Shown here in pieces: positions 2,235 through 23,988 of a stretch of DNA of 40,000 nucleotides; position 1 is the stretch's first letter, and the number at the start of each line of letters is the position of its first letter. The DNA comes from an uncultured Methanomethylovorans sp. (GTDB lineage Archaea; Halobacteriota; Methanosarcinia; Methanosarcinales; Methanosarcinaceae), in assembly GCF_963678545.2 (NCBI RefSeq), contig NZ_OY782867.2:2368913-2408912 (forward strand), in the 5' to 3' direction. Both the position numbers and the translations under genes were made by a program. A model generated the notes under the pieces. That model saw only the letters and a list, made by a program, of their open reading frames with translations. It ran no database searches and was not told the DNA's origin.

Positions 2235-3114
2235 GAGCCTGTATCAAAACTATAAATACTATTTCTCTGAATGTTATTGTGGGGATATGAATGGAATTCA
2301 GAGAACTCTCTGATGATCAATGGAAGTTTATAAAGCCACACTTGCCACCACAACCAATTACCGGAAGAAAGAGAGCTGATGACCGTAAGGTCATCAATGG
2401 TATTCTCTTTGTTCTGATAACAGGTTGCAGATGGGGAGATATGCCAGCTATTTATGATTCCCAGGCAACTGCCTGGAGAAGGCTGAAAAGGTGGTCAGAG
2501 GAAGGTATATGGAACGAGATAATGGAATCCCTTCGGGATTCCGCTTACCAGAAAGGTAAGTTCTCATTGGATACAGTGTGTATCGATAGCAGTTTCATCG
2601 AAACTAAAAAAGGGGAGATGACTCCTCGTACAACGGTCACAAGAAAAGAAAAGGCATAAAGATCCATGCATGTGTAAGTTGTGAAGGTTTTCCACTTACA
2701 ATCCAAATATCTTCTGGAAAAGAGCACGATAGACAGCACTTCATTGAAGTTATGGAGGATATTAAGGTTAAGACCGATGGAAGACCAAGGACAAGACCTC
2801 TTGAAGTTCTGGCAGACGCTGCGTACGACGATACAGAAATCAGGCAGTACTTAAGGTCCAGAGCTATCAAAAGCAACATACCGATCAATACAAGGAACAG
2901 TAAAAGAAAGAAAAGAGGAAGACCTACTCGATTTGATGAAGAAACATATCATTACAGAGGAACTATAGAACGATTCTTTGCATGGTTGAAGATGGGATTT
3001 AGAAAATTAGCAAGTAGATATGAACGTCTTAATGTGGTTTTCAAAGGATTGTTAGATATTGCATGTTTCCTGTTGTGTTGGAAAAAGGTGTGAGTGAAGT
3101 TTTGAAATAGGCTC
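2235..3114 (+). mobile_element. IS5-family insertion sequence (IS427/IS1031-like group), 880 bp
   Basis: The 17-bp terminal IRs are gagcctgtatcaaaact (2235-2251) and agttttgaaataggctc (3098-3114), matching 15 of 17. Flanking aat/aat is a possible 3-bp TSD. The element encodes a two-frame DDE transposase. Confidence 0.8.
2291..3093 (+). CDS. IS5-family transposase OrfAB, joined by a programmed -1 frameshift at the A6G run (2606-2612)
   Basis: OrfA (2291-2659) ends ...DSSFIETKKG. The -1 frame is open from 2608 and reads KRGDDSSYNGHKKRKGIKIHACV...ADAAYD...RGTIERFFAWLK, which continues into the tracked ORF 2752-3093. This is the typical split transposase of the DUF4096 + DDE_Tnp_1 type. Confidence 0.8.
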
Positions 3115-9292: not shown

Positions 9293-10657
9293 ATGGATGA
9301 AAAAAGTGATTTTCTGGGTAAAGATAATGTAAGAAAGCTCCTGTTTAAGCTTTCAACTCCTATAATCATTGGAATGCTTGTGCAGGCGCTTTATAATGTC
9401 GTGGACACGTTTTTCGTGGGAATGGCTTATGGAGAAAATAGTGTCCAGGCAATAGGCGGGCTTTCAATAGCTTTTCCAGTCCAGATGATTATAATGGCAT
9501 TTGGAATTGTTCTTGGAACAGGGGGATCTTCCATAATCTCCCGGGCTCTTGGAGCACGAAATAATGAAAAAGCAGAAAGGGTTCTGGGAAACGTTTTTTC
9601 CCTTAGTTTACTTTTAAGTGTGCTTATAGCTGTTCCTTGTCTTCTTTACCTTGAACCTATTTTAAAGTTATTCGGGGCAACTGCTGGAATCCTGCCTTAT
9701 GCCAGAGATTATCTGAAGTATATAATTTTAGGAGGTATTTTCTTTGTCTTTGGGGTGGCTGTTCAGAATATTGTCAGATCTGAAGGGAACTCCCGCCTTG
9801 CAATGAATGCTATGCTTGTAGGAGGTGGCCTCAATATATTGCTTGATCCGATTTTCATGTTTGGTTTCGGAATGGGTGTTGAAGGAGCTGCAATTGCAAC
9901 CGTACTGTCACAAGCTGTAGGTTCGATCTGGCTCCTACTATATTATCTTAAAGGAAAAGGAACTATTCATTTCAAATCACAAAATTTAAAACCAGATCCT
10001 GAAATCATCAAGGAAATTGGAGCCATTGGTACTGGTTCTTTTATAATGGAATGTTCAAACAGTTTGATGATGATTGTAGTGTATAACATCCTCGCAATTT
10101 ATGGAGGAGACGTTGCAATTGCTGTCTTAGGTATAGTAATGAAGATTAATTCCTTTATCTTCCTGCCTCTTCTGGGTATGGGCTTTGGATTACAACCGAT
10201 TGTAGGGTTTAACTACGGGGCAAAGAAGTATGATAGAATAGTAGAAGCTGTAAAAATGGCTCTGGTGGTAGTAACAGCCTTTGGATTGTTTGGTTTACTC
10301 ATAATTTATATCTTCGCTGAAAAACTTCTTATTATTTTCAGTGCAGATCCAGCATATCTGGAAATGGGGAAGAATGCTTTAATAATCATGGTTCTGGGAA
10401 CGCCTTTGATTGGTTTGACCGTAGTTGCATCGATCTTTTTCCAGGCATTAGGGAGAGCCAAACCTGCTTTTATTCTTTCTATTAGCAGGCAGCTACTGTT
10501 CCTTATTCCCGCAGTTGTGCTGCTTCCCCGTTTTTATGGCCTGAATGGAGCTTGGGTGGCTTTTCCTGTCTCGGATCTCTTGGCATTTATGCTCTCCGGG
10601 TTTATGCTTTTCAGGGCATATAGGGTATTCGAGAAGAGTAAAAAGTCCATCGCGTGA
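9293..10657 (+). CDS. MATE-family multidrug efflux transporter
   Basis: 454 aa with about 12 TM segments. The N-terminal ...LLFKLSTPIIIGMLVQALYNVVDTFFVG and the repeated halves are typical of MATE/NorM proteins. Confidence 0.9.
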   Translation: MDEKSDFLGKDNVRKLLFKLSTPIIIGMLVQALYNVVDTFFVGMAYGENSVQAIGGLSIAFPVQMIIMAFGIVLGTGGSSIISRALGARNNEKAERVLGNVFSLSLLLSVLIAVPCLLYLEPILKLFGATAGILPYARDYLKYIILGGIFFVFGVAVQNIVRSEGNSRLAMNAMLVGGGLNILLDPIFMFGFGMGVEGAAIATVLSQAVGSIWLLLYYLKGKGTIHFKSQNLKPDPEIIKEIGAIGTGSFIMECSNSLMMIVVYNILAIYGGDVAIAVLGIVMKINSFIFLPLLGMGFGLQPIVGFNYGAKKYDRIVEAVKMALVVVTAFGLFGLLIIYIFAEKLLIIFSADPAYLEMGKNALIIMVLGTPLIGLTVVASIFFQALGRAKPAFILSISRQLLFLIPAVVLLPRFYGLNGAWVAFPVSDLLAFMLSGFMLFRAYRVFEKSKKSIA

Positions 10658-10766
10658 AATATAGGACCAAAACTATCCGAAATAATTTCCTTTTTTATTG
10701 TTGTTTTAATATGAAAGCATTTAGATTACATTTGATGGAAAAATATAAGAGGATTCTGATTATAAG

Positions 10767-11975
10767 CAACTACAAAGCAGAGCACAGGCTATCAAAATCC
10801 TGGTAAATGCTACCAGTTACGGAATATTCATTGAACTTATCCCAGAAGATAAGACCAGTGACATACAGGTTTATGGCCTTGATTCTTTCAATACTTCAGA
10901 AAACAGGTTTGAAAAACCAGGAAACTATTATCATCCTCTGCTTGCTGTAATGATAACAGCAGCTTCCAGGCTGTTCCTTGCTATGGCTGAAACCAAATTA
11001 AAGGAACAGGGTGGGATTCATGCTTACATGGATACAGATAGTATCTTTGTTCCTCCTGAATATGCCCAGGATATGATAGATTATTTCCAACCACTTAATC
11101 CCTATAGCCTTGATATTCCATTGCTGAAGGCTGAAAAAGTGGATATGTGGTTTTATGGTATTTCCTCAAAACGCTATGCTCTGTACACTTATGAAAAAGA
11201 ACAGACTAAATTTATAGAAGGGGAAAGGTCTTTCAAATTACATGGTTTAGGGCATCTTACTAATCCATTCCCTAAGAATATACAGGACTGGCAGGCCCAG
11301 GTATGGGAAGATATACTAAGATTACACTACAAAACCATAAGTTCTGTAGATATTGAGGCTAAGTATTCTGGGGTATATGCTATTTCGAAGCTTACTGTTT
11401 CTACCCCCAGGGTGTTGGCCAGGTTTAAGAAACTTAATGAAAACAAAACCTGGGATCAACAAATAAAACCCTTCAACTTTTACATCCTAGGGTTCCAAAC
11501 CATAAAAGAAAATGGTAAATCTGTGAAACCCTTAGCCCCTTTCTCTACTAATCCCCAGGAAATAGTGTATGAGCCTTTCATTGATTATGAAACAGGAGAG
11601 ATTAAGCAAGGATCACATTACTTCAAACCACTAAGTAAAATCATAATGCAATATGTAGATCATCCAGAGAGTAAATTTGATGGTGATATTGGTATTCTGG
11701 AAAGAAAACATGTGCATGCTGACGGTATTATCTACATTGGGAAGGAAGCGAACAATATTGATGAACAGGCTCTTGATGTTAAGAAGGCTCAAGAATTTGT
11801 GAATAAAGAAGAGATAATGCAAATGATACTCGATTTATCACAAAAAGAAGCCGAAGTAAGAGGAGTATCAAGGTGTGTGTTTCAGGGGATTAAGCAAAGG
11901 ATAAGGGAAACGGGGGATGTGAATTTAGATACTCCTGCTGTGAGGAGATTGATGGGTAAAATATCATCAGTTTAA
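10767..11975 (+). pseudogene. polB: Family-B DNA polymerase fragment (motif B KILVNATSYG and motif C YMDTDS to the C-terminus); lacks the exonuclease domain and motif A
   Basis: Colinear nucleotide and protein similarity to the intact polB starts near 10767 (compare 20865). About 80% of residues are identical by eye over the 341-aa tracked ORF. The frame remains open but has no N-terminal two-thirds. Confidence 0.9.
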
Positions 11976-12284
11976 TGTTAGAACTTTATCTCGAATAAAA
12001 GATAAAAAATCTTTTACTTCAATAGAAGATACTCGATAAAATTTGTCATCGCCATGTGCAGCCCATGTTCCAATTTCATAATTTGCTCGTAGGCTATTTT
12101 CTAGAGGTTTATGAATCAAACCATTTTGGCGAAGAGTGATTATAATCTGATCAAACCTTTGGTTTGTGTCTATATTATTTTTTTTTGCAAATTCTTTGAT
12201 AGTGGCTTATATAATAACTCTTCCATACATTACTGCTGCTAAATCCAATTTCTGACTTAAAAATTCAAAAGCCTGATCCAGCAT
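11967..12284 (-). pseudogene. HEPN/DUF4145-like small gene interrupted by an in-frame TAA
   Basis: The minus strand reads MLDQAFEFLSQKLDLAAVMYGRVII*ATIKEF...FDQIIITLRQNGLIHKPLENSLRANYEIGTWAAHGDDKFYRVSSIEVKDFL...LN*. It is absent from the ORF track because the part after the stop has no start codon. Confidence 0.45.
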
Positions 12285-12308
12285 ATCACTAAAAACTAAT
12301 AGTTCTCT

Positions 12309-12683
12309 TTAATAAAAAAGGTCATCAGTCAAACTATTTTCGAGGGCATATGAAACAGCTTCTAATATACCGATCTGTATTTCAACTTGAGTTTTGTAGT
12401 AAGAGGTAGTAGTAGTTGTAGATTCTGAATATTTTCGCTCGTATGTTTTAATGAATTTTTTATAATATTCAGAATTTTCTCCAAATCTTAAACGCAAAAT
12501 GTTTTCGGCACTTGTTTGAAATTTTGTAATACTCCTGTACGGGGAAAATTCAACCTTATAAATAGAATTGAATGATTTAGATATGACACCCTCTATATCA
12601 TTTCCTGGTGTCATAGTTCTGATTATTGATTTTCCTTCTAGAATAATTTGCGATAATCCATTAGCTATGATTTTATCATTCAT
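12309..12683 (-). CDS. Hypothetical protein (cargo of the casposon remnant)
   Basis: This is a 124-aa ORF on the same strand as its neighbours. I recognise no motif in it. Confidence 0.35.
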   Translation of the reverse strand: MNDKIIANGLSQIILEGKSIIRTMTPGNDIEGVISKSFNSIYKVEFSPYRSITKFQTSAENILRLRFGENSEYYKKFIKTYERKYSESTTTTTSYYKTQVEIQIGILEAVSYALENSLTDDLFY

Positions 12684-12797
12684 GTTTATCTGTTAATACA
12701 AGTTTTGCATATAAAAAGTAATTGAGTTTCAATTTAAAAATTATTTCAAGATTTACGTCTCACGACTTTATTATACAATATCTAATGAATATTTAAA

Positions 12798-13505
12798 TTA
12801 TATTTTACTGAGTTGAGATGTGAGAGTAATCACATCATCTAGAAGTTGTTTTGCTTTATCTTCATCCAGTTTTAGATTGTATGTTCCATGTGCCACTTGA
12901 TTTTTTAAATTTCGTACCTCTTCAATTAATGCTTTTTCGGTAGCATTTATTAGTTTTTGCTGTTCTGCAAACTTGATTAAACGAGAAAAAGATATAGATC
13001 TATTATTTTCAATTGAGTCTGTTGTTGCTAATTTAGCATATAACGATTTTTCAATTGCATTATTAAGTTCGATAAGCATATAATCATAATATCCGCTTTT
13101 ATATACTCTTTTTGCATTTAAAAGTGAAATGGATTCAGAGTCTCTTGCTCTTTCTATAGCATCTCGATATCTTTCCATGTATGCCTTTAAAGTAATCTTC
13201 ATTGGAATATAAGCAAAAAGTGTGGAAAGCAATGATGTTATTATTTGAATTGCTATTTCGCCCGTATATCCGTTAAAATTCGTACTTTCAATATATGCAA
13301 CAATACTAGAGGAAATATATAGTAATAGAATAACTATTGGAAAAACAAAAATTGCAGTGGTATATAGTAAATCTGCTATTAAACTTGTATGAGAGAATAT
13401 GGACATTTTGACAAGCTTAAATGAACAATATTTCATATTATCTATTGCATAGAAATAAACAGATAAGAATAAAATAAAACCCATAGTTAAAAAGAGGGTA
13501 TACAA
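12798..13505 (-). CDS. Membrane-anchored protein with a C-terminal HEPN/DUF4145-like domain; possibly N-terminally frameshifted
   Basis: About 3 N-terminal TM segments are followed by a C-terminal ...LIKFAEQQKLINATEKALIEEVRNLKNQVAHGTYNL..DEDKAKQLL. The R198-x7-H206 motif lies at nt 12888-12914. A 49-codon TM-like ORF (13487-13636, GTG start) overlaps its TTG start in another frame, which hints at a frameshift. Confidence 0.5.
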   Translation of the reverse strand: MYTLFLTMGFILFLSVYFYAIDNMKYCSFKLVKMSIFSHTSLIADLLYTTAIFVFPIVILLLYISSSIVAYIESTNFNGYTGEIAIQIITSLLSTLFAYIPMKITLKAYMERYRDAIERARDSESISLLNAKRVYKSGYYDYMLIELNNAIEKSLYAKLATTDSIENNRSISFSRLIKFAEQQKLINATEKALIEEVRNLKNQVAHGTYNLKLDEDKAKQLLDDVITLTSQLSKI

Positions 13506-13845
13506 AGAGGTACTATAGGAAAAAAGTGAAATCTTAATGGGTATAAATAATCTTTATAATTTGGGAGAGCAAAGAGCAAAGCTAAAAAGCTGATAATAAA
13601 AATTACTTTCTCATTAGATTTCTTATCATCATCCACACATTCCTGTAAAATATAAACTTATATATACTTTTCTAAAAATAGGTATATGTCTTTAAGGGAA
13701 CTTTTTTCTATTTAGTAGTGTTTTTTAATTATTGGAACATTTCTAAAAGATTATTTTAACTCAAGTAACAAAAAAGCATGTTTAAAACAAATTGTAGGAG
13801 TATTGTTTTTTCGATAGAGAAGGGAATACAGTTTGTATTAATAAG

Positions 13846-13878
13846 AAGAGTATTGTTTTTTCACGTTACCTATATCCC
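13846..13878. repeat. Right terminal inverted repeat of the decayed casposon
   Basis: The reverse complement gggatataggtaacgtgaaaaaacaatactctt matches the left TIR of the intact element at 28 of 33 positions. Confidence 0.85.
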
Positions 13879-13892
13879 TTAAAATTTATGCG
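13879..13892. repeat. Target-site duplication copy (ttaaaatttatgcg), shared junction between the two casposons
   Basis: It is identical at 14 of 14 positions to 23810-23823 and is flanked on both sides by outward-facing TIR ends (...tatatccc | TSD | gggatata...). Confidence 0.9.
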
Positions 13893-13925
13893 GGGATATA
13901 GGTAACTCTAAAAAACAGAACTCTT
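13893..13925. repeat. Left TIR of the intact casposon
   Basis: The sequence gggatataggtaactctaaaaaacagaactctt pairs with the reverse complement of 23777-23809. Confidence 0.9.
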
Positions 13926-14022
13926 CTAAATAATTAAGACTGATGGCCAAGTCAATTTACAGATACTTTTAAATAATTGTACTACTTTTTTTAAATAAAC
14001 GTTAATATATTGTAAGTATAAT

Positions 14023-14496
14023 ATGAGTCAAAAGGTAATTACACTAGAGGAACGAGTTAAACATATAGAAAAAGCTTTGTTGTCTTTTATTTTCTTTACC
14101 TTATCTTGGATTCCATTATCAGATACAAGTAGCACTCTCTCTTTATATGGTGGATATGGAATTATCTTTTTTTTAGCATTTTTTATTGTATTCTCTTCTT
14201 TAACTACTTATTATTCTTCCCTCTTAGCTTTTTCAGTATTTTCAGATACTCCAAATAAAGTTGCTAGAATTATTATAAAATATAAAGAAAAAGTTTCAAT
14301 GACATTTGTATTTTTCATAATAATTAGTGCTATAATAGTTCTAAAATATTTGAGTTTTGATTTGAAAGAAATTGCTGGTAGCATAGTTCTTGTAGGGCTT
14401 GCATCTGTTATCTATAATTTCAAAAAAATCTGTAGCCGAATCTGTGAGCGTATTTCAAAAATCGATGAATATGCAGAAAAGAAAAATCTCAAATAA
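14023..14496 (+). CDS. Small 4-TM membrane protein (left-arm cargo of the casposon)
   Basis: 157 aa with four hydrophobic segments and a charged C-terminal tail. I recognise no family. Confidence 0.45.
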   Translation: MSQKVITLEERVKHIEKALLSFIFFTLSWIPLSDTSSTLSLYGGYGIIFFLAFFIVFSSLTTYYSSLLAFSVFSDTPNKVARIIIKYKEKVSMTFVFFIIISAIIVLKYLSFDLKEIAGSIVLVGLASVIYNFKKICSRICERISKIDEYAEKKNLK

Positions 14497-14684
14497 GCAT
14501 TTTTAATTTAACAGCTGAATCATTAATTCTGGAAGTATTAACACATACTGATTCTTAATTTCCAAGCACTTAACTCTTATTTTTTTCCTATGAATTAAAC
14601 AAGCATTATTGGGGATTATCATACCATGAAAACTTTTCATAGAAAGTATTATCTTTGCTATTTAAAGGAAATTACAAAAACTTG

Positions 14685-15614
14685 TTACGTGAATATGGAA
14701 ATCGGAATTACTTGAATGGCAGGTTTTTTAATTTCTGTAACCATTTCGGGAATCTCAACCCCTTGTTCTTGTATGCCTTCAAGTATCTTGCAAAATTCAT
14801 CAATAAACTGTTTATTTAATAATCCTAAACTTGTTTTTCTAAGCAGATTTATAGAAACTGTTGACTCTAACGGTATAGTGCGTATTACTTTTCCAAAAAT
14901 TCTGTATTCTCCGTCGATTAATTCTTCCATATTTTGGTTGATAAAAAAATCGGATTTGGCAGACAAAACTGCACTTATCTTTGTTCCACCTACAATTTGG
15001 CCAATAATTTCTGTTGATTTTGAGTTGTTAAGTTCAGTTGATAGTCCTTTTATTTTGCTTAATAGAATTTCATTTTCATTTTTATTTTGACTTGTGTTTT
15101 CTTTTCTTTTTCCTTTGATTGATGGGTGTGTTTCCTCTTCTATAAGTGGTAAAGCCATTTCCATTAATTGTGTAATTCTTTCAATACTATCAATTAATGG
15201 GTTTCGAGTAAGAATTGCTTTAAATTCTACAAACATTCCACTTTCTAATTTATTAAAATCTTCAATTGATAATAATTCGTGTACTAAACCTTTTTCTTTT
15301 AAACATATTCTTAATTTAGAAAACAATGATGATGGCGTATGGATCTTTTTCTTTGATAATTCTGTTTGCTCATCTGTATCTCTTTCTTGATTTAAACTCC
15401 CACTAAATGAAACACCGAACAAACTCAATAAATTACTTAGTCCAATTGTTGATCCTGCTGAAGCACTTTTTCTCTCCGAATCTATAATTGATGTTTTGAT
15501 TGTAGTTACATCTGACAATCCATCTTCAATTATTGCAAGTAAATCAAAAACAATCTGTTGATTCAAATAAATAGGAATACATAGATCAAGTGAATCCTCA
15601 ATAAGTTTTTCCAC
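14685..15614 (-). CDS. Hypothetical 309-aa soluble protein (left-arm cargo of the casposon)
   Basis: A long uninterrupted ORF lying convergent with 14023-14496. No catalytic motif is recognisable by eye. It has a central Lys/Glu/Asn-rich linker (...KGKRKENTSQNKNENE...). Confidence 0.5.
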   Translation of the reverse strand: MEKLIEDSLDLCIPIYLNQQIVFDLLAIIEDGLSDVTTIKTSIIDSERKSASAGSTIGLSNLLSLFGVSFSGSLNQERDTDEQTELSKKKIHTPSSLFSKLRICLKEKGLVHELLSIEDFNKLESGMFVEFKAILTRNPLIDSIERITQLMEMALPLIEEETHPSIKGKRKENTSQNKNENEILLSKIKGLSTELNNSKSTEIIGQIVGGTKISAVLSAKSDFFINQNMEELIDGEYRIFGKVIRTIPLESTVSINLLRKTSLGLLNKQFIDEFCKILEGIQEQGVEIPEMVTEIKKPAIQVIPISIFT

Positions 15615-15792
15615 CTTCTTTTTCCTCCATTAGTACTGAAAAATCCCTTTCAGTTGCTGTGTTAATTTACGTTTCAATAGTATTATACATCAATACATAG
15701 AGATTTTTAACATTAATGGTTAAGAGTACACGATATTAAGTATAAATTATGACAGTTACTTATAATAAGTAAGTTTTGTTCGACAGAAAAAA

Positions 15793-16992
15793 CTACCCTC
15801 TCCATACCTCCAACCTCTCCCTTACATGAGCATTCAAAGTAAATGGCTTATCAGCCTTTGCATTTTGTTTCATATAATGCAATGTGCCTTTTGAGAATCC
15901 CATGTTCTTCCATTCAGTATAGGAAATATTCAGTATCTTTTGTCTAATATCATCTGAATCCTGTCTATCAATAGTAAATTCAGGCTTACTGAAATCTATA
16001 GCCTTCCTTTTCTCAACAAGGTATTGAACTAGCTCTCTAGTTTTCAACAACAAAGCATAATTCCAGGTTACTGAGTTCTTATGATACGGAACTTTCTTAT
16101 TCATCCAATTCTGGAACTCTTCAGTTACTTTCTTTGCACCTGAAGGTTTTAGCCTGAGGGAATAGCTTTCTGTCCTGATAAAATCCTTATCTTCCATTTT
16201 CTTAGATTCAATAAGGCTGATTACTGCAAGATCAACAAGGAATCTGAAAGGCTCTTGAAGATCATAGGCTAAACTGTTCTTACTTGGATTCATTTCGTGT
16301 AAGAAACCTACATGAGCATCCAAACCAACTGTATTAATGGCTCTCAAACATTCAGCTTCGAGTAAAGCATAACCATAATTGAGCATAACATTAACCATAT
16401 CACCTGCTGTTACTGGCCTTCTATACTGGTCTATCCTGGAACAGAAATCATATTTATCAGGAATAGCTTTTGAAAATTCATTCCAGTATTTCCAGGCAAC
16501 ACCACCCTCAATACCCATTATTTCCCTTATGGTTTTAGCCTTCTTTAACTTCTCATTATCCTCAGAGAAATCATAAGCAATCTCAGGATACCTTTGTTTT
16601 AGGTAATCCAGAACCACCTGGGATTTATCAAACTTGGCTTCAATGAATTTCCTTGCTATGCTGATTCTGGTTTCTTCATCCTCAAAAGCATGGTATTGAG
16701 CAAACTTTGTTTTTACATTGGTACTTTCAGGAGGAAGCATTGTTGTTAAGAGCTTACCATCCCAATTAAGGATAGAAACCTGTACATTGTGTTTCATTAA
16801 CCATTTAACAGCATCCAGAGTAAGGTTTCCATTCCTGCCATAGATAACAATGTTATCCAAATCCATTCTTCTTGGAGAGAATACATATTCTTGTGGTTCT
16901 TCAGTGGTTGAAGTTCTCCCGTCTTTGATATGGAGTTTTGCACTATTAACCCTCATATCAATTCCATGACCACTAAGAAGCAATAATTTCAT
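15793..16992 (-). CDS. cas1: Casposase (solo Cas1-family integrase with a C-terminal HTH)
   Basis: The Cas1 core is NVMLNYGYALLEAECLRAINTVGLDAHVGFLHEMNPSKNSLAYDLQEPFRFLVD, containing the catalytic E...H...E/D triad pattern. A C-terminal extension ...ILNISYTEWKNMGFSKGTLHYMKQ has an HTH pattern. I chose the start at MKLLLLSGHG (ATG 16992, GGGGTG 7 nt upstream) over the tracked 17016. No cas2 or CRISPR array is nearby. Confidence 0.9.
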   Translation of the reverse strand: MKLLLLSGHGIDMRVNSAKLHIKDGRTSTTEEPQEYVFSPRRMDLDNIVIYGRNGNLTLDAVKWLMKHNVQVSILNWDGKLLTTMLPPESTNVKTKFAQYHAFEDEETRISIARKFIEAKFDKSQVVLDYLKQRYPEIAYDFSEDNEKLKKAKTIREIMGIEGGVAWKYWNEFSKAIPDKYDFCSRIDQYRRPVTAGDMVNVMLNYGYALLEAECLRAINTVGLDAHVGFLHEMNPSKNSLAYDLQEPFRFLVDLAVISLIESKKMEDKDFIRTESYSLRLKPSGAKKVTEEFQNWMNKKVPYHKNSVTWNYALLLKTRELVQYLVEKRKAIDFSKPEFTIDRQDSDDIRQKILNISYTEWKNMGFSKGTLHYMKQNAKADKPFTLNAHVRERLEVWRG

Positions 16993-17047
16993 AATTAGCA
17001 CCCCTACTGTACACAAAAATTGTTTAATTTTACAATGCTGTTAAGCG

Positions 17048-17953
17048 TTAAAGCTTTTTTGGCTTTGTAGAAATGCTCATTTGAACAATATATGTAACCT
17101 TGACATACCTGTCAAGGTTATGCACTAATAGTTTCAATTTAACCTCTTTTGCTTGATTCCAATACTTTTTTGCCTTCACTTCTTCCCCGTATTTCCTTTT
17201 CAGAACAGAGAACATCGTTTCTACAAGATTTCTGCAATGGTACAATATTTCCTCAAACTCATCGATCATTTTTCTACGATACTTACCCTTGATCTTCTTC
17301 CTTTTCCTTTCTCTCAAAGGAATCATAGCTACTGCGTCTAGTTCTTCCCTTACTAGAGAATGTATAGCTTCAGAATCGTAACCTTTGTCCATAAGGTAAA
17401 ACTTTGATTGGCGATTTTTATGACATTGCCGTAGCAATGTCATCGCATGCTTTGCATCATGGATAGGCTTACCAGATATCTTAAAACCAGTGATAATAAA
17501 CTTCTTTGTATCAATGGAAATACTCACTTTTAGGAATGATCTACGTTTCTTTCCAGTCCTAAAAGAGTAATAGTAGCTACAGTGACCACTCGTAAATCCA
17601 CTCGAATCAATGGCAATTATCTCTATTTTTTCGCCATATGAATAGAACAGTTTTAGTGTTTGCTGTAACAACGATCTGAAAAGAATTGACCTAAGTCTAG
17701 TTATAAACTTGTGAAGTGTGGTATAATGTGGAACCTCTTTTAAACCAATTCTTAACTTCAAACTCTCCATTAATTCAACAAGTTCAACAATACTTCTGTA
17801 ATCTACATTAAGATATTCTTTTAACAAAATCAAGGTCAATAGCTGGTGTTGTGTATATTTCCTTTTCGAATATTTGCAACTATAGATCGGCAGGTGTGAT
17901 TTTCCTGATACAGCTAAAGCTGTATCAACAAACTTTAAGTACTTATTTGACAA
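17048..17953 (-). CDS. IS4/IS5-superfamily DDE transposase
   Basis: 301 aa with ...AIDSSGF...[12 protein letters not shown]...[19 protein letters not shown].... The ORF reads through the IR, and its stop lies in the flanking DNA. Confidence 0.85.
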
Positions 17954-18060
17954 AACACAATCATCCCCTTTGTGTTTCAGTGGAAAGTAATACTCAGGGG
18001 ATTTATTCTTTTTAAATTATTAGGTCAAAATAAAAGCAAAAGTAGCATTTCTACAGAGCC
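17061..18060 (-). mobile_element. IS5-family (ISH1-group-like) insertion sequence, 1000 bp, nested in the casposon
   Basis: The terminal IRs are ggctttgtagaaatgct (17061-17077) and agcatttctacagagcc (18044-18060), matching 16 of 17. The 8-bp direct repeat gctttttt occurs at 17053-17060 and 18061-18068. Confidence 0.85.
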
Positions 18061-18266
18061 GCTTTTTTGGTGATTATTATAAGTAAAGATTAACAGCAAA
18101 AGTTGGTTTAGTATATAAATCATCTCATTTAATAATGCCAATAGATACTGTTTTTTGAGATTACTTTCGCCGTGCTATACTGTCTCTATTTATATTAAAA
18201 CAGTTTATTTGCTATCTACTACGCCACCCGTAATGATAGCAACCCTGGCGTTGGAGATAGAAAAAC

Positions 18267-18416
18267 ATGAAACAAAAAACAGAATATGGACGTTTTGTCC
18301 TGACATTACGCCCTTTCATAAAGGGAAAATTGGAACAATTATCAGAAAAGTTTGGATGCTCTCAGGCTGAAGTAGTCAGAATAGCATTAGTGAAACTCTG
18401 GGAGGAAGAGAAATGA
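18267..18416 (+). CDS. Ribbon-helix-helix (CopG/Arc-like) small DNA-binding protein, 49 aa; not in the ORF track
   Basis: MKQKTEYGRFVLTLRPFIKGKLEQLSEKFGCSQAEVVRIALVKLWEEEK has a beta-strand followed by two helices, the RHH pattern. Its TGA overlaps the ATG of the next gene (ATGA at 18413-18416). Confidence 0.6.
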   Translation: MKQKTEYGRFVLTLRPFIKGKLEQLSEKFGCSQAEVVRIALVKLWEEEK

Positions 18417-19054
18417 GCAGACCTGTTTTCTCCAAAGACCACCGAACTTATGGTGAATGGCTCAAAGCTCAACCCAGGGATAGCAGATATGCAAAAGAGA
18501 TCATCAAGAAACATAACCTGTTTCCAGATAAGAGCCTGAATCAGCTTAGAAACCTCAGAATAGCTGATTATGATAACAGTAAGATGGCCTGGAAAAGCCT
18601 TACCTCTCAACAGAAAAGTGATAGGAAACGATCACTTGAAATTCTGAGAAATATGAGAAAGGGAGGAAATCTTACTGAGATAACTGAAAAATTAGGAGTA
18701 AACAGACAATTTGCACTCAAAAACCTGGGGAACTATCTCTACAAGGATAAAGGCAAATGGACTGTTACAGCTACAGATAAGATTGAAACTCAGATGCTAT
18801 TCTATAGCAGGGATAAAGGCCACATATCCATAGTGACTGCAAGCTCAAAAGACAGGTCATTGATCGGAAAATACATGGCTTATGTGAACAAAGCCCTGAA
18901 ACACAATGATCCTTCTGTACTTGATGAGTTCAGGAATCTCAAAATAATAGATGCTGAAGGAAAAGAGCATCATTTTGAAACCGATCTTGATAAACTGTAT
19001 GAGATAGAGGAAGCGCAGGAAGAACCAGAGTTCTTGGAGATATACCAGAGTTAA
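18413..19054 (+). CDS. Casposon-associated basic protein with a putative central HTH
   Basis: 213 aa. The segment ...RKRSLEILRNMRKGGNLTEITEKLGVNRQFALKNLG... is HTH-like. It lies in an operon with the HNH and polB genes. Confidence 0.5.
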   Translation: MSRPVFSKDHRTYGEWLKAQPRDSRYAKEIIKKHNLFPDKSLNQLRNLRIADYDNSKMAWKSLTSQQKSDRKRSLEILRNMRKGGNLTEITEKLGVNRQFALKNLGNYLYKDKGKWTVTATDKIETQMLFYSRDKGHISIVTASSKDRSLIGKYMAYVNKALKHNDPSVLDEFRNLKIIDAEGKEHHFETDLDKLYEIEEAQEEPEFLEIYQS

Positions 19055-19066
19055 GGAGTTGATGCT

Positions 19067-19396
19067 ATGGACAAAAACGAATATCAAAAAAGTATCAAGA
19101 AACAGCAGAGAGAAGGAAAAACAACTATTTGTTGTTCAACATGTGGAGTAACAGATTCTTCAATTATTGAAATGCATCATATCTTTGGTCGGAACAATTC
19201 TGAGAAAACAGTTCCTTTATGCAAGAATTGTCATGCTAAAATTACATATCAACAGAATAAGCTTGCACCCAAAATAAGATCTGTTAATGCATCCAGTGAG
19301 GAAAAGAGAAGATTCCTGTTTGTTTCTATGGGCGGCATTTTAAGGGTTATTTCAGACCAACTGCTTACATTTGGTTTTGAAGGTGATTTTTCATGA
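19067..19396 (+). CDS. HNH endonuclease
   Basis: CCSTCGV...EMHHIFGRNN...PLCKNCHAKI shows the CxxC...HH...N...CxxCH zinc-finger HNH signature. Its stop overlaps the polB start (ATGA). Confidence 0.8.
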   Translation: MDKNEYQKSIKKQQREGKTTICCSTCGVTDSSIIEMHHIFGRNNSEKTVPLCKNCHAKITYQQNKLAPKIRSVNASSEEKRRFLFVSMGGILRVISDQLLTFGFEGDFS

Positions 19397-22059
19397 GTAA
19401 GATTGCTGTTAGAGGATATACTCAGAAGGTAACGGGGCCTTCTATTAAGGCCCCTTTTAAGGCCCTAAAACACCCTTTAAGGTTTAGCAGGGTATTAGTT
19501 TTTGATACTGAAACCACCATTAATCATTATCAGAATCTTAAAATAGGGTACTTTAAGATTTATCAAAAAGGGTATATTCAGCATGAGGGTTTAGTTTATA
19601 CCCCTAATACCTTAACAGAAAAGGAAATTAAGGCCCTTCAGGATTATTCAAATAAGACTAATATTGCCCTTTATACTCATGATGAGTTCATTGATGATGT
19701 ATTTTATCCTGAAGTGTTTAAACTAAAAACCCTTTGTATAGGGTTTAATCTTCCCTTTGACATCAGCAGGATAGCAAAGGATACAGGAATATCCAGAGGC
19801 AAGAATAAAGGAGGGTTTACTTTTACCCTTTCAGAAAACAGGTTTAACCCTCCTGTTATTGTAAAAAAGCTAGGTAATGCTTACAGTTTCAAGTTTACCA
19901 CTACTAAAGAGAATAAAGGAAAAGAGTATTTCCAAGGGTATTTCCTTGATGCTCAAACTTTAGCTAAAGTGCTCTTACAATCAAACCATATTTCACTTGC
20001 AAAAGCAGGAGAGAAGCTCAATACTAAAAACAGAAAAATGAAAGATATAGAACATGGAAGGGTAACTAAGAGGTATATTGATTACTTGATCCAGGATGTA
20101 GCCACTACTTACGAAGTGTATCAGAAGTTAATCGAAGAGCTTGATTTATATCAAATAGATATCTCACCAACACAAATATACAGCGCCGCTTCACTTGGAA
20201 AACATACTTTAAAGCAATTAGGAATCAAGCCATTCAAAGAGCAAGTACCTGAGTTTCCCGATTCCTTGATCGGCAACATTATGACTGCTTATTATGGTGG
20301 TAGGTGTGAATGTAAAATTAGGAAAGTTCCAACAAAAGTTACTACTCTTGATTTTATCAGTATGTATCCTACTGTTACCATGCTACTTGATTTTTGGAAA
20401 TTTATTATTGCAGAGGATATTGAAACAAAAGAAGTAACTGAAGAAATTAAGGTTCTGCTAAATAACATAAACCTATCTTATCTGCAAAATAAGGACAACT
20501 GGAAAGACTTTATTGTTATGGTTAAGCTAAGACCTGATGAGGATATTTTACCCACCAGGATGAATTACAAAGGTGATGGATCGGCTTTCAATGTGGGTAT
20601 TAATTACCTTACCTCAAACAGTGAATTGTGGTATTCATTACCTGATGTTATAGCTTCAGTTATCTTAAATGGAAAAGTACCTGAGATTGTAGAAGCTGTA
20701 AGATTTATTCCTATAGGTATTCAGAAAGGATTAAGGAAAACTAAGGTTTTAGGAATTGATATTGATCCATCAAAGGATAATTTAATTCAGCTCTTAGTTG
20801 AGGAAAGGCAGAAGATAAAGCAAGGTTTGAAAAGCAAAAGCAGAGACGATCCAGAATATCAGCATTTACAAAGCAGAGCACAGGCTATAAAAATCCTGGT
20901 AAATGCTACCAGTTACGGAATATTCATTGAACTTATCCCAGAAGATAAGACCAGTGATATACAAGTTTTTGGCCTTGATTCTTTCAATACTTCAGAGAAC
21001 AGGTTTGAGAAACCAGGAAATTATTATCATCCTCTGCTTGCTGTAATGATAACAGCAGCTTCCAGGCTGTTCCTTGCTATGGCTGAAGCCAAATTAAAAG
21101 AACTGGGTGGGATTCATGCTTACATGGATACAGATAGTATCTTTGTTCCTCCTAAACATGCTCAGGATATAATAGATTATTTCCAACCCCTTAACCCCTA
21201 TAGCCTTGATATTCCATTACTCAAAGCTGAAAAAGTGGATGTGTGGTTTTATGGTATAGCCTCAAAACGCTATGCTCTGTATAATCTTAAGGATAATAAA
21301 ATTGAGTTTATGGAAGATGAGAGATCTTTCAAACTGCATGGATTAGGCCATCTTACAAATCCATTCCCAAAGGATATAGAAGATTGGCAGGCTCAGATAT
21401 GGGAAGATATACTAAGTTTACACTATGGGTACATTACAGAACTTGATATTGAAGATAAGTATTCTAATCTATATGCAATTTCAAGACTAACTGTTTCAAC
21501 CTCTAATGTATTAAGCAGATTCAAAAAGGTTAATCAGGGAAAAACCTGGGATCAGCAAATCAAACCATTCAACTTTTTCTTAGTAGGATTCCAGAGCATA
21601 GAAGAGAATGATAAGGCTGTAAAACCCTTATTACCTCACTCCAATAACCCTCAGAGTGTTGTTTATGAGCCTTTCATTGATTATGAAACAGGAGAGATAA
21701 AGCAAGGATCACATTACTTTAAACCATTAAGTAAGACCATTATGCAATATGTGGATCATCCAGAAAGCAAGTTTGATGGTGATATAGGTATTCTGGAAAG
21801 AAAGCATGTGTATGTTGATGGTGTAATCTACATAGGAAAGGAAGCAAATAATATTGATGAACAAGCTCTTGATGTTAAGAAGGCTCAGGAGTTTGTGAAT
21901 AAAGAAGATATCATGCAGGTGGTACTTGCTATACCACAAAAAGAAGCTGAAGCAAGAGGAGTTTCAAGGAGTGTGTTTCAGGGAATTAAGAAGAGGATAA
22001 GGGAAAGTGGGGATGTGAATTTGGATACTCCTGGGGTGAGGAGATTGATAAATAAGTAA
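19393..22059 (+). CDS. polB: Family-B DNA polymerase (casposon PolB)
   Basis: Motifs seen: Exo I VFDTETT, Exo II GFNLPFDISRI, Exo III YLIQDVATTYEVY, motif A TLDFISMYPT, motif B KILVNATSYGIF, motif C YMDTDSIF, and KRYALY. Confidence 0.95.
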   Translation: MSKIAVRGYTQKVTGPSIKAPFKALKHPLRFSRVLVFDTETTINHYQNLKIGYFKIYQKGYIQHEGLVYTPNTLTEKEIKALQDYSNKTNIALYTHDEFIDDVFYPEVFKLKTLCIGFNLPFDISRIAKDTGISRGKNKGGFTFTLSENRFNPPVIVKKLGNAYSFKFTTTKENKGKEYFQGYFLDAQTLAKVLLQSNHISLAKAGEKLNTKNRKMKDIEHGRVTKRYIDYLIQDVATTYEVYQKLIEELDLYQIDISPTQIYSAASLGKHTLKQLGIKPFKEQVPEFPDSLIGNIMTAYYGGRCECKIRKVPTKVTTLDFISMYPTVTMLLDFWKFIIAEDIETKEVTEEIKVLLNNINLSYLQNKDNWKDFIVMVKLRPDEDILPTRMNYKGDGSAFNVGINYLTSNSELWYSLPDVIASVILNGKVPEIVEAVRFIPIGIQKGLRKTKVLGIDIDPSKDNLIQLLVEERQKIKQGLKSKSRDDPEYQHLQSRAQAIKILVNATSYGIFIELIPEDKTSDIQVFGLDSFNTSENRFEKPGNYYHPLLAVMITAASRLFLAMAEAKLKELGGIHAYMDTDSIFVPPKHAQDIIDYFQPLNPYSLDIPLLKAEKVDVWFYGIASKRYALYNLKDNKIEFMEDERSFKLHGLGHLTNPFPKDIEDWQAQIWEDILSLHYGYITELDIEDKYSNLYAISRLTVSTSNVLSRFKKVNQGKTWDQQIKPFNFFLVGFQSIEENDKAVKPLLPHSNNPQSVVYEPFIDYETGEIKQGSHYFKPLSKTIMQYVDHPESKFDGDIGILERKHVYVDGVIYIGKEANNIDEQALDVKKAQEFVNKEDIMQVVLAIPQKEAEARGVSRSVFQGIKKRIRESGDVNLDTPGVRRLINK

Positions 22060-22186
22060 CATAAAAAAAGCCTTCTCTTTGAATGCTTATCTTAAATAAA
22101 CTCAATCTTTTACAACAATATTGATACTAACTATTATATATTATAAAACTTCTACTAATTATACAACTTAATAATGTGGGATTATT

Positions 22187-23584
22187 ATGAGTACTACTGA
22201 AATTATTCCTTCAGGCCAGAATAAAATAGGTGCAGATGTTGATGGTTTTTCAAAATCACTGGAATCTTACCTAAAGTCTCTTGGTTTACCTGCAAAAAAT
22301 GTGCTTGTAGAAATAAAGGAACGACAGATAGTTATTGCAAATATGCCTTTCATTATTGAATCTTTAGACCCTTCAATTATGGAAGAAGCCTATTATATTT
22401 CAAAATTCATTGCATCATGTGGTGTAGGCTTATTTGATGCTGCTTTGAATTATCTTTGGAATGAAACAATTGTAAATTTAAGACAAAAAATAGTTCTTTT
22501 TGATTTAGATTACTTTTTTAATGTTTTAAACAAGGAAACCTACAATAGTGAAGAAGACTTACAGAAAATTGAAGATTGGGAGTTAATAAAAGGCTGCCTT
22601 AAAGTAGGCATACTTTCTGATATTGGGTTCAAACATTTAGATTACATAAGAGATATGAGGAATTTTGCAAGTGCAGCCCATCCAAATAACACTGAATTGA
22701 CAGGCTTAATGTTGGCTAATTGGTTACAAACCTGTATCAATGAAGTACTTTCAAAGGAACCGTCTAGTTCCGCTCTACAAATTAAAAAATTATTACCTAG
22801 TGTTAGACAAGAAACATTGACAGAATCAGATTCCAGGCCGATTATTTCAAATATTGAACGTCTACCACAAGATCTTGCAAATTCGTTATTGCTTGCATTA
22901 TTTGGAATGTATACAAATGAAGACATCTTACCCGTTGTCAGAAATAATATACAATATCTTGCAAAAGCGACTTGGTTGAAATCCGATACAAAAACAAAAA
23001 AAGCTATAGGACTAAGATATTCTAATTTTTCTGCAAATGCACAAGTTGTGAGAAAAAAGTTTGCAAGAGATTTTTTAATTCTTGTTGAGGGATTAGCTTA
23101 TTTGACAGAAGATCAAAGAAGCATAGAATTAAGAGAATGTTTAGAAGCACTTATTAATGCACATTATGGACATAATAATTTCTATAACGAAGAACCACAT
23201 GCGAAAATAATCTATAACTATATACGTGACAATTATAATATACCCGAAAATGTCCGACCATTATATGTATCATCCATTTTAACTTGCAAATTAGGTAATT
23301 CGTATGGACCTTCATATTCTGCTGAACCTTATTATGATCAAATGATTGATAGGTTTGATGAGACCGAAATTAGGGAATTATTAAGGCTATTAAAAGACAA
23401 AGAATTTACTGTTATATTCCAAGATAACTCAAGAGCATTTAGATTTAAAAATGTAGTCTCTAAATTAGCAGATAATTTGTCCAATGCTATATTGAAACAA
23501 GCACTTGAAAAATTAAAGGAAAGCTCAAATACTGAGTTACAAAATGGACGAGCATATCTTAATATAAAGAATTTGATTGAATAA
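22187..23584 (+). CDS. Hypothetical 465-aa protein with a HEPN-like Rx6H motif (right-arm cargo of the casposon)
   Basis: ...LIKGCLKVGILSDIGFKHLDYIRDMRNFASAAHPNNTEL... contains R158-N-x5-H165 at nt 22658-22681. It sits between polB and the right TIR, the same position as the unrelated cargo of the decayed copy. Confidence 0.5.
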   Translation: MSTTEIIPSGQNKIGADVDGFSKSLESYLKSLGLPAKNVLVEIKERQIVIANMPFIIESLDPSIMEEAYYISKFIASCGVGLFDAALNYLWNETIVNLRQKIVLFDLDYFFNVLNKETYNSEEDLQKIEDWELIKGCLKVGILSDIGFKHLDYIRDMRNFASAAHPNNTELTGLMLANWLQTCINEVLSKEPSSSALQIKKLLPSVRQETLTESDSRPIISNIERLPQDLANSLLLALFGMYTNEDILPVVRNNIQYLAKATWLKSDTKTKKAIGLRYSNFSANAQVVRKKFARDFLILVEGLAYLTEDQRSIELRECLEALINAHYGHNNFYNEEPHAKIIYNYIRDNYNIPENVRPLYVSSILTCKLGNSYGPSYSAEPYYDQMIDRFDETEIRELLRLLKDKEFTVIFQDNSRAFRFKNVVSKLADNLSNAILKQALEKLKESSNTELQNGRAYLNIKNLIE

Positions 23585-23776
23585 TACGTCTTTATCTTGA
23601 GGACTGTATTATTCTTTATATTTTTTCATTTCTTCGATTTGTCGTATAATCAAAAATTTGTTATGGAAAGATGAAATGTTTAAAAATGGTGACTAATATA
23701 AATAAATAGCATAAGTTATGTTTTTCGTTTTTCTATTTGAGAGTAAAGGTAACAAAACATAGAATTAAAAAAGTTT

Positions 23777-23809
23777 AACAGTTCTGTTTTTTCTCGTTAA
23801 CTATATCCC
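23777..23809. repeat. Right TIR of the intact casposon
   Basis: The reverse complement gggatatagttaacgagaaaaaacagaactgtt matches the left TIR at 28 of 33 positions. Confidence 0.9.
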
Positions 23810-23823
23810 TTAAAATTTATGCG
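23810..23823. repeat. Target-site duplication copy overlapping the tRNA-Leu 3' end
   Basis: ttaaaatttatgcg is identical to 13879-13892. Its last 4 nt are the final acceptor-stem bases plus the discriminator of the tRNA. Confidence 0.9.
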
Positions 23824-23903
23824 AGGGGTGGGATTTGAACCCACGAAATCCTTCGATACCAGATCTTAAGTCTGGCGCCTTTGACCAGCTGGGCAACCCT
23901 CGC
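23820..23903 (-). tRNA. tRNA-Leu(UAA): tRNA-Leu, anticodon UAA (class II, long variable arm)
   Basis: The minus strand reads GCGAGGG-TT-GCC-CAGCTGGTCAAA-GGC-G-CCAGA-CTTAAGA-TCTGG-TATCGAAGGATTTC-GTGGG-TTCAAAT-CCCAC-CCCTCGC-A. The cloverleaf is complete, the T-loop is canonical, and no CCA is encoded. Confidence 0.9.
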
Positions 23904-23988
23904 ATGAAGAATAGTTGTTGTGGATTTATCCCAGTATGGACCTACCCCATAATTAAAGTTAAGTTACTTAAGCCTTATTCTTCTATCT

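Follow-up and report, generated by a model that had tools for sequence, protein, structure and literature searches.

What occupies the space between the DNA polymerase gene (polB) and the right terminal inverted repeat (TIR) of a casposon, and do the genes found there have a function in common? The question is raised by a stretch of 40,000 nucleotides from an uncultured Methanomethylovorans sp. (contig NZ_OY782867.2, positions 2,368,913 to 2,408,912; hereafter the window), in which repeat analysis and open reading frame (ORF) calls revealed two casposons in tandem, abutting a tRNA-Leu(taa) gene and having a 14-bp target site duplication (TSD) in common. We refer to the truncated one as casposon A and to the other as casposon B. 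Each of three cargo genes lies between a polB stop codon and a right TIR, the one at 22187-23584 on the forward strand and the other two on the reverse strand. An initial annotation of this DNA had described three unrelated genes downstream of polB and near the right TIR; this layout is borne out by our data, and the three peptides it quoted are all present at their coordinates. The explanation towards which we lean, with moderate confidence, is that horizontal transfer brings new genes into the slot between polB and the right TIR, whereas the core of the element is kept, that this slot holds here three unrelated genes of the HEPN superfamily, and that the intact one, encoding a protein of 465 amino acids (aa), specifies a stand-alone HEPN RNase. 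The features on which the argument rests are the following (+ and -, forward and reverse strand):

10748-13878 (+): casposon A, a truncated relic that retains the last ~400 polB codons, the right arm and the right TIR
10950-11975 (+): C-terminal polB fragment of casposon A, a 341-aa ORF
11967-12683 (-): pseudogene of the DUF4145 family (HEPN clan), with two in-frame TAA codons at 12309-12311 and 12207-12209 and the motif SLRANYEIGTWAAHG
12798-13636 (-): gene for a HEPN protein with transmembrane helices (TM-HEPN), called as ORF 12798-13505, its N-terminal ~35 codons lying in another frame from a GTG at 13636
13829-13878 (+): right TIR of casposon A, found as inverted and direct repeats
13879-13892: 14-bp TSD TTAAAATTTATGCG between casposons A and B, from the repeat analysis
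13893-23809 (+): casposon B, from TIR to TIR, with core genes intact except for the insertion of an insertion sequence (IS)
13893-13942: left TIR of casposon B, which pairs with the right TIR
22187-23584 (+): gene for an intact, all-alpha 465-aa protein with no annotated domain, the sole gene of the right arm of casposon B
22370-22756 (+): HEPN-like helical-bundle domain of the 465-aa protein (about residues 62-190)
22658-22681 (+): codons of R158-N-F-A-S-A-A-H165, the invariant RNxxSAAH motif
23777-23809: right TIR of casposon B, with 85% complementarity to the left TIR
23810-23823: second copy of the TSD TTAAAATTTATGCG, overlapping the 3' end of the tRNA-Leu gene
23819-23904 (-): tRNA-Leu(taa), the integration target (ARAGORN)

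Casposon A matches casposon B at 85.5% nucleotide identity over 1.2 kb (10748-11953 against 20844-22049, blastn), and this homology begins abruptly at 10748, within polB and shortly after the end of a host MATE-like gene at 10657. The TIRs of casposon B are 33-50 nt long, with 80-85% complementarity, and enclose Cas1, a family B polymerase and an HNH protein, the gene set of family-2 casposons. The target also conforms to that family, with a 14-bp TSD having a CGCA end at the 3' end of a tRNA-Leu gene; the reverse complement of the TSD, CGCATAAATTTTAA, agrees with the published rule of CGCA followed by an AT-rich stretch (PMC4779613). The insertions of the two casposons at this tRNA-Leu gene were successive, casposon A being the older. 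Very similar arrangements are known from family-2 casposons of Methanosarcinales, with a core of Cas1, helix-turn-helix (HTH), HNH and protein-primed PolB, TIRs of ~50 bp, a 14-bp CGCA TSD at the 3' end of tRNA-Leu and tandem arrays (Krupovic et al. 2014, 2016; PMC4779613). In Methanosarcina, such tandem copies have one common TSD beginning with CGCA at a tRNA-Leu target, and one of the copies is inactivated (PMC4779613). The pair described here differs in its host genus, Methanomethylovorans, in its cargo (the TM-HEPN, the DUF4145 and the unnamed 465-aa families are not among the listed cargo) and in that its inactive copy was truncated by deletion and not only by stop codons in polB.

Evidence that the cargo is exchanged on a conserved chassis comes from related casposons, of which a PolB-based retrieval gave eleven loci in Methanolobus and Methanosarcina; the PolB of casposon B is 63-70% identical to those of casposons in these two genera. 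When casposon B was compared by tblastx with five relatives, homology was found only in cas1 (15791-17014), in the HTH-HNH-polB segment (18291-22056) and in the TIR, both arms and the IS being unique to casposon B. This pattern agrees with the proposal of the initial annotation that the cargo is exchanged while the core for replication and integration is conserved. The clearest evidence for such a swap is a complete casposon of Methanolobus vulcani B1d (locus L007, 3942-16563), located at the orthologous tRNA-Leu(taa) and beside the same MBL-fold hydrolase gene, in which the right arm encodes instead a 1208-aa protein with TPR, GreA/B-C and PIN domains. The right arm is thus a general cargo slot, not one specific for HEPN genes.

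How many of the three genes in the window belong to the HEPN superfamily? All three had been regarded as HEPN-like, a view that holds for the two genes of casposon A, the families of which exceed curated cut-offs, and not at the same level for the 465-aa protein, which has no significant match to a HEPN profile. The first of the two is the gene at 11967-12683, for which homologues score 24.3, 27.3 and 25.3 bits on DUF4145 (PF13643) against a cut-off of 23.1, and precomputed PF13643 annotation is present in 8 of 49 homologues. The copy in the window stays under the cut-off, with 19.0 bits (E 1.5e-3). Judging from the scores of its homologues, membership of this gene in the DUF4145 family of the HEPN clan is established. 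Within the family, R199 and H210 are invariant, in a motif SLRANYEIGxWAAHG with the unusual spacing R-x10-H. The pseudogene had been placed at 11967-12284; the decayed gene is real, and that interval is only the C-terminal part of 11967-12683, which also includes the ORF 12309-12683. The two TAA codons leave no intact coding sequence over this interval, and in intact homologues (208-251 aa) the two stops correspond to Gln and Glu, so that the copy reads as a dead one. Read-through of the stops by pyrrolysine was considered and ruled out, since both are TAA and not TAG.

The second gene, TM-HEPN, belongs to the HEPN family PF05168, a membership that we also take as established on profile scores: four homologues reach 23.8, 25.3, 27.4 and 33.3 bits against a cut-off of 22, and the copy in the window falls just short of it with 20.2 bits. 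Further matches of the homologues, below threshold, are to the HEPN models Swt1, RiboL-PSP, MAE_28990 and DUF4145, and the 202-aa product is named 'HEPN domain-containing protein' by NCBI. For the two genes of casposon A, weak matches to candidate 'PDC' models of PADLOC were obtained (E 0.01 and 1.4e-4). The R-x7-H motif that had been pointed out in 12798-13505 was misassigned; its Arg is replaced by Gly in one homologue, and the family motif is R-N-Q-V/I-A-H-G (Rx4H), which in the window reads LKNQVAHG, with Lys in place of the motif Arg. Three N-terminal transmembrane helices had also been proposed, and hydropathy indeed indicates three to four hydrophobic segments in 12798-13505 and a further one in the N-terminal part that is read in the other frame. 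The change of frame falls at 'tta ta ccc att' (13536-13550, reverse strand), where one nucleotide is lost in a run of C; an additional C would restore a frame that matches the homologues (DYLYPIKISLF...). This frameshift may reflect an assembly error in a homopolymer and not a true mutation. Neither the complete Arg/His pair of the motif nor an intact frame was found in the window copy, which looks inactivated from its reading frame and motif.

A homologue of TM-HEPN was also observed in Methanococcoides sp. FTZ1 (locus L019, 9127-17538), directly upstream of a C-terminal casposase fragment that is 69% identical to the Cas1 of the window. Around them are AbiJ_NTD5, DUF4062 and SIR2 genes and, at 17515-17538, a sequence resembling a TIR; the whole looks like a decayed casposon absorbed into a defence island.

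The remaining gene, 22187-23584, has its own AT-rich upstream region and encodes a protein 100% identical to one of an uncultured Methanomethylovorans sp. (2.93-Mb contig). Its motif R158-x6-H165 (RNFASAAH) follows the Rx4-6H pattern of HEPN proteins. The bare pattern R.{4,7}H is expected by chance, as it occurs 2.9 times per 1000 aa in the stop-free segments of the window; the more restrictive RN.{3,6}H is rare, with three occurrences in 11,209 aa of the window, two of them in the ORFs considered here. The significance of the motifs rests on their invariance in homologous sequences, not on their mere presence. In 111 homologues of the 465-aa protein (43-67% identity), RNxxSAAHPN is invariant, and in 22 more divergent family members (23-43% identity) the only invariant residues are G81, D84, W91, R158, N159 and H165, every one of which is kept by the protein in the window. 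R158 and H165, the lack of conservation of which the initial annotation would have taken as a refutation, are therefore invariant in both sets. The family has a second strongly conserved region, with NNFYNE and GNxxG, and the C-terminal alpha-helical domain (residues 197-465) is also conserved, N331 being invariant and E335 and G374 nearly so.

The full-length AlphaFold2 model of the 465-aa protein is all-alpha, with a predicted local distance difference test (pLDDT) score of 90. Because a Foldseek search of the Protein Data Bank (PDB) with the whole protein gave only generic ARM/HEAT solenoids, the fold search was made with a model of the domain alone (residues 59-196, pLDDT 85.7). About two-thirds of its top 37 matches were chains of the HEPN superfamily, representing about nine distinct proteins and all weak (E 0.58-5). 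The domain matches included HepT of Shewanella, a HEPN toxin of Aphanizomenon, HI0074, AF_0298, SsR10, 1wwp, MtlR and YggD, with template modelling (TM) scores of 0.35-0.56, and the PDB entries matched were 5yep, 7bxo, 7ae6, 1wwp, 1jog, 2hsb (TM 0.52/0.56) and 2jpu/2q00. The motif, at domain positions 100-107, occupies a linear position identical to that of the residues R102/H107 mentioned in the entries 7ae6/7ae2. Profile and structure searches, proposed earlier as the check on this protein, gave in the end a divided answer, with no profile match and with HEPN toxins as the nearest solved folds at weak scores. Overall, we consider a genuine HEPN fold probable.

Several results weigh against this assignment and give room to an alternative that we regard as unlikely and that nevertheless survives best among those considered. 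According to it, the 465-aa protein would be no HEPN nuclease but some other all-alpha protein (for instance a regulator, a scaffold or an anti-defence factor) using RN...H for ligand binding or other chemistry, and true HEPN genes would exist only in casposon A, both of them dead. The 465-aa protein has no match in Pfam, NCBIfam or PADLOC, none of which represents its family, and six relatives tested with PADLOC gave none either. HEPN-clan Pfam models searched against 52 family members (two sets) yielded nothing significant, only stray matches to Abi_C (E 0.039 and E 0.24). When a profile of the family was run against the sequences of the PDB, no HEPN entry was retrieved, and its alignment by hhalign with the two bona fide HEPN families of the window gave probabilities below 2%. 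None of the structural matches of the domain is statistically strong (all E ≥ 0.58), the whole protein resembles only ARM/HEAT-like folds, and the conservation of NNFYNE and GNxxG suggests an important function outside the putative bundle. The negatives from sequence methods carry little weight, however, because the positive controls fail too: both hhalign between the two genuine HEPN families and the PDB profile searches with these families were equally unsuccessful. Moreover, R158, N159 and H165 make up three of the six invariant residues of the family, a pattern typical of catalysis, RN...H is the HEPN signature, and the solved structures closest to the domain are in their great majority HEPN proteins, not other helical bundles.

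How far does the family of the 465-aa protein extend? At least 1974 homologues were found. A phmmer search with the domain against 1.84 billion cluster representatives gave 366 proteins (232 at E ≤ 1e-10); the family comprises ~366 clusters at 50% identity, and the search retrieved only the family itself, with no bridge to annotated HEPN families. The domain always lies at about residues 60-200 of a protein of ~470 aa, in a single architecture. In all contexts examined, the homologue stands as a single gene. These contexts include a Metabacillus prophage, near a ThsB-TIR gene; a location flanked by IS copies; Methanoregula, beside a restriction-modification system; Pseudomonas otitidis, beside a CTD8/MC4/AAA_23 cluster; and Methanococcoides vulcani, where a truncated homologue lies in a region with casposase fragments. 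In Methanolacinia petrolearia (locus L001, 9725-15403), four adjacent unannotated genes of 451-477 aa were observed beside the homologue, being mutual paralogues with 51-89% identity. The possibility that such neighbours of ~470 aa, seen in Methanolacinia, Methanoregula and Pseudomonas, are paralogues or conserved partners was rejected, as blastp showed them to be unrelated to the 465-aa protein.

Members of the family are also carried by 91 plasmids, of which 50 are conjugative. One copy, WP_001460374.1, occurs in identical form on plasmids of E. coli, Shigella, Klebsiella and Enterobacter and is always annotated as 'hypothetical protein'; it is 476 aa long, 35% identical to the 465-aa protein and keeps MRNDIGASHPN. 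By tblastn, many such plasmids gave identical matches (35.3% identity, query residues 1-395), and a literature search for the E. coli accession WP_001460374.1 returned nothing. In the one plasmid context examined, that of E. coli NZ_CP025845.1 (locus L024, 6001-7431), the gene is part of an accessory region, with an integrase, recombinases and IS26 close by. Based on this distribution, we tentatively propose, as a bolder reading that is possible more than probable, that the 465-aa gene represents a new and widespread family of single-gene HEPN-type RNase effectors acting in abortive infection or in conflict between elements, and transferred between archaea and bacteria by casposons, prophages, IS composites and conjugative plasmids. 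A search of 50,697 phage records retrieved no member of the family, which counts against the explanation that we prefer.

A second alternative, which we find improbable, denies any functional theme: the arm would simply accumulate captured DNA, and the presence of three HEPN-type genes in two elements would be a coincidence, HEPN genes being very common in mobile and defence DNA. The survey of the equivalent arm in relatives, another check foreseen in the initial annotation, confirmed that the cargo is variable and, where identifiable, mostly of conflict type, and returned no further HEPN gene. Between polB and the right TIR, the related casposons encode the 1208-aa TPR-GreA/B-C-PIN protein, a TPR protein, a DndB/GmrSD-like protein together with an unknown one, a reverse transcriptase, a RES protein, a SEC-C protein and two unknowns. 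Ten right-arm proteins from eight of these casposons, of mixed functions and several of them unknown, were scanned without any HEPN-clan match, and HEPN is therefore not the rule of the right arm; the HEPN theme of this locus may be a coincidence. The left arm is, furthermore, as variable as the right one, and two of the three genes are decaying and hence not under selection. These points are to be set against the nature of the identifiable cargo in relatives, which is mostly of conflict type (PIN, RES, reverse transcriptase, DndB/GmrSD-like, HEPN), against a different tandem pair of casposons in which HEPN and AbiF-like proteins occur (Krupovic et al., PMC4779613), and against the intact 465-aa gene itself, which has lost none of its family-invariant residues.

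The last alternative, that the cargo consists of addiction modules of toxin-antitoxin (TA) type that stabilise the casposon instead of host-beneficial defence genes, seems to us very doubtful: HEPN proteins are the toxins of HEPN-MNT systems (MNT, minimal nucleotidyltransferase) and the top fold matches are such toxins, copies of the family on plasmids have RelB and Phd/YefM antitoxin genes and resolvases in their vicinity, within regions of maintenance or accessory type, and TA modules on ancestral casposons have been put forward as speculation in reviews (PMC9939771), but the right arm of casposon B contains no MNT or other second gene, the homologues stand alone, and a chromosomal transposon would not be lost by segregation, which would weaken the post-segregational logic. 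An addiction role is less likely because there is no antitoxin candidate. No minimal nucleotidyltransferase antitoxin ORF is present in either right arm, and the flanks of the 465-aa gene contain no partner ORF of at least 25 aa other than a single 25-aa ORF with a TTG start (23597-23674). An antitoxin in the form of an RNA or a small ORF beside the gene was sought and rejected, given that single ORF and flanks devoid of tandem repeats.

Under the explanation we prefer, in which unrelated HEPN-superfamily genes were brought by horizontal transfer into a slot of a conserved element, cas1 and the HTH-HNH-polB core would be kept while the right-arm slot is refilled. The genes of casposon A are decaying together with their host element, one through two nonsense codons (DUF4145) and the other through a frameshift and an Arg-to-Lys change at the predicted catalytic position (TM-HEPN). 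The 465-aa protein of casposon B would act as a stand-alone HEPN-type RNase. Its bundle (about residues 62-190) would carry R158-N159...H165 as catalytic motif, with an active site formed by dimerisation as in other HEPN nucleases, and its C-terminal domain (197-465) might serve as a sensor or auto-inhibitor that silences the RNase until a trigger such as infection. Cleavage of RNA would then arrest the cell, as in abortive infection or inter-element conflict, and such a gene would give the host a reason to keep the casposon. Toxicity, abortive infection and addiction are putative functions here.

The other genes of casposon B belong to its core and its left arm:

14023-14496 (+): small multi-pass membrane protein, left arm
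14685-15614 (-): DUF6414 protein (E 2.5e-35), left arm
15793-17016 (-): casposase Cas1 (PF01867, E 1.3e-70)
17048-17953: IS with a DDE transposase (DDE_Tnp_1, E 4.4e-21), between cas1 and the HTH gene
17061-17082 and 18039-18060: 22-nt inverted repeats of the IS
18413-19054: HTH-type gene
19067-19396: HNH gene, with weak HNH-type matches (RecA_dep_nuc, E 2.5e-4)
19393-22059 (+): PolB, a family B DNA polymerase (DNA_pol_B_2, E 5.7e-15)

Because it has no homology to related casposons, the left arm is also a cargo region. The Dodola defence system includes a protein with the domain DUF6414 (bioRxiv 10.1101/2024.10.26.620412); the DUF6414 protein of casposon B has no ClpB-like partner and no PADLOC match. 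The IS (17048-18060) is not present in the related casposons compared by tblastx, and its insertion may have set cas1 apart from the region that regulates it. Upstream of the casposon region, a short ORF (2752-3093, forward strand) resembles, from its translation, the C-terminal part of an IS-type DDE transposase, which suggests another IS fragment.

Three known groups of systems offer points of comparison. The HEPN toxins of HepT-MntA systems (5YEP, 7BXO, 7AE6; PF05168) have a helical bundle with Arg...His near the start of the last helix, as is predicted for the domain of the 465-aa protein, and the TM-HEPN family passes the cut-off of PF05168. No MNT antitoxin gene accompanies the genes described here, however. 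The 465-aa protein is three times longer than HepT and differs from it in its large conserved C-terminal domain, in the Rx6H spacing and in having no match to PF05168 at the sequence level, whereas TM-HEPN differs by its fusion to four to five membrane helices. Abi_2 (AbiD/AbiF) and Abi_C (AbiJ-type) belong to the Pfam HEPN clan, and the assignment of both families to HEPN was reportedly made by Anantharaman and colleagues in 2013. Like the 465-aa protein, these are single-gene proteins of several hundred residues that combine a HEPN module (a putative one in the 465-aa protein) with further helical domains, and like its family they are carried on plasmids, prophages and islands; the sequence link between them and the 465-aa family consists only of the stray sub-threshold Abi_C matches mentioned above. 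An AbiF-like protein has already been found in a casposon (PMC4779613). In pipolins, as here, a conserved module for replication and integration lies beside an exchangeable module rich in defence genes (PMC11551731). Casposons have a lower fraction of defence genes annotated by PADLOC than pipolins (PMC11551731), and most of the cargo described here is not recognised by PADLOC.

Part of this picture was already published, and the value of the present data is incremental in that respect: tandem arrays at tRNA-Leu are known, as are casposons carrying HEPN, Abi and RES genes, and in Methanosarcina HEPN, AbiF-like and RES proteins are among the non-conserved genes (Krupovic et al. 2016, PMC4779613). 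New are the specific cargo families, the comparison of one integration site in two genera, and the widespread, unannotated RN...H family to which the intact gene belongs. The locus is a clean natural example of cargo exchange, with the same tRNA-Leu site and core in two genera and entirely different cargo. For practical purposes, the data provide a lead on an unannotated RN...H family that is carried on clinically common enterobacterial plasmids and is directly testable in E. coli. The adaptation module of CRISPR is presumed to descend from casposons, and the idea of toxin-type genes having been ferried by them bears on how effector and accessory nucleases, among them Cas2 and the HEPN proteins, came to be part of CRISPR loci.

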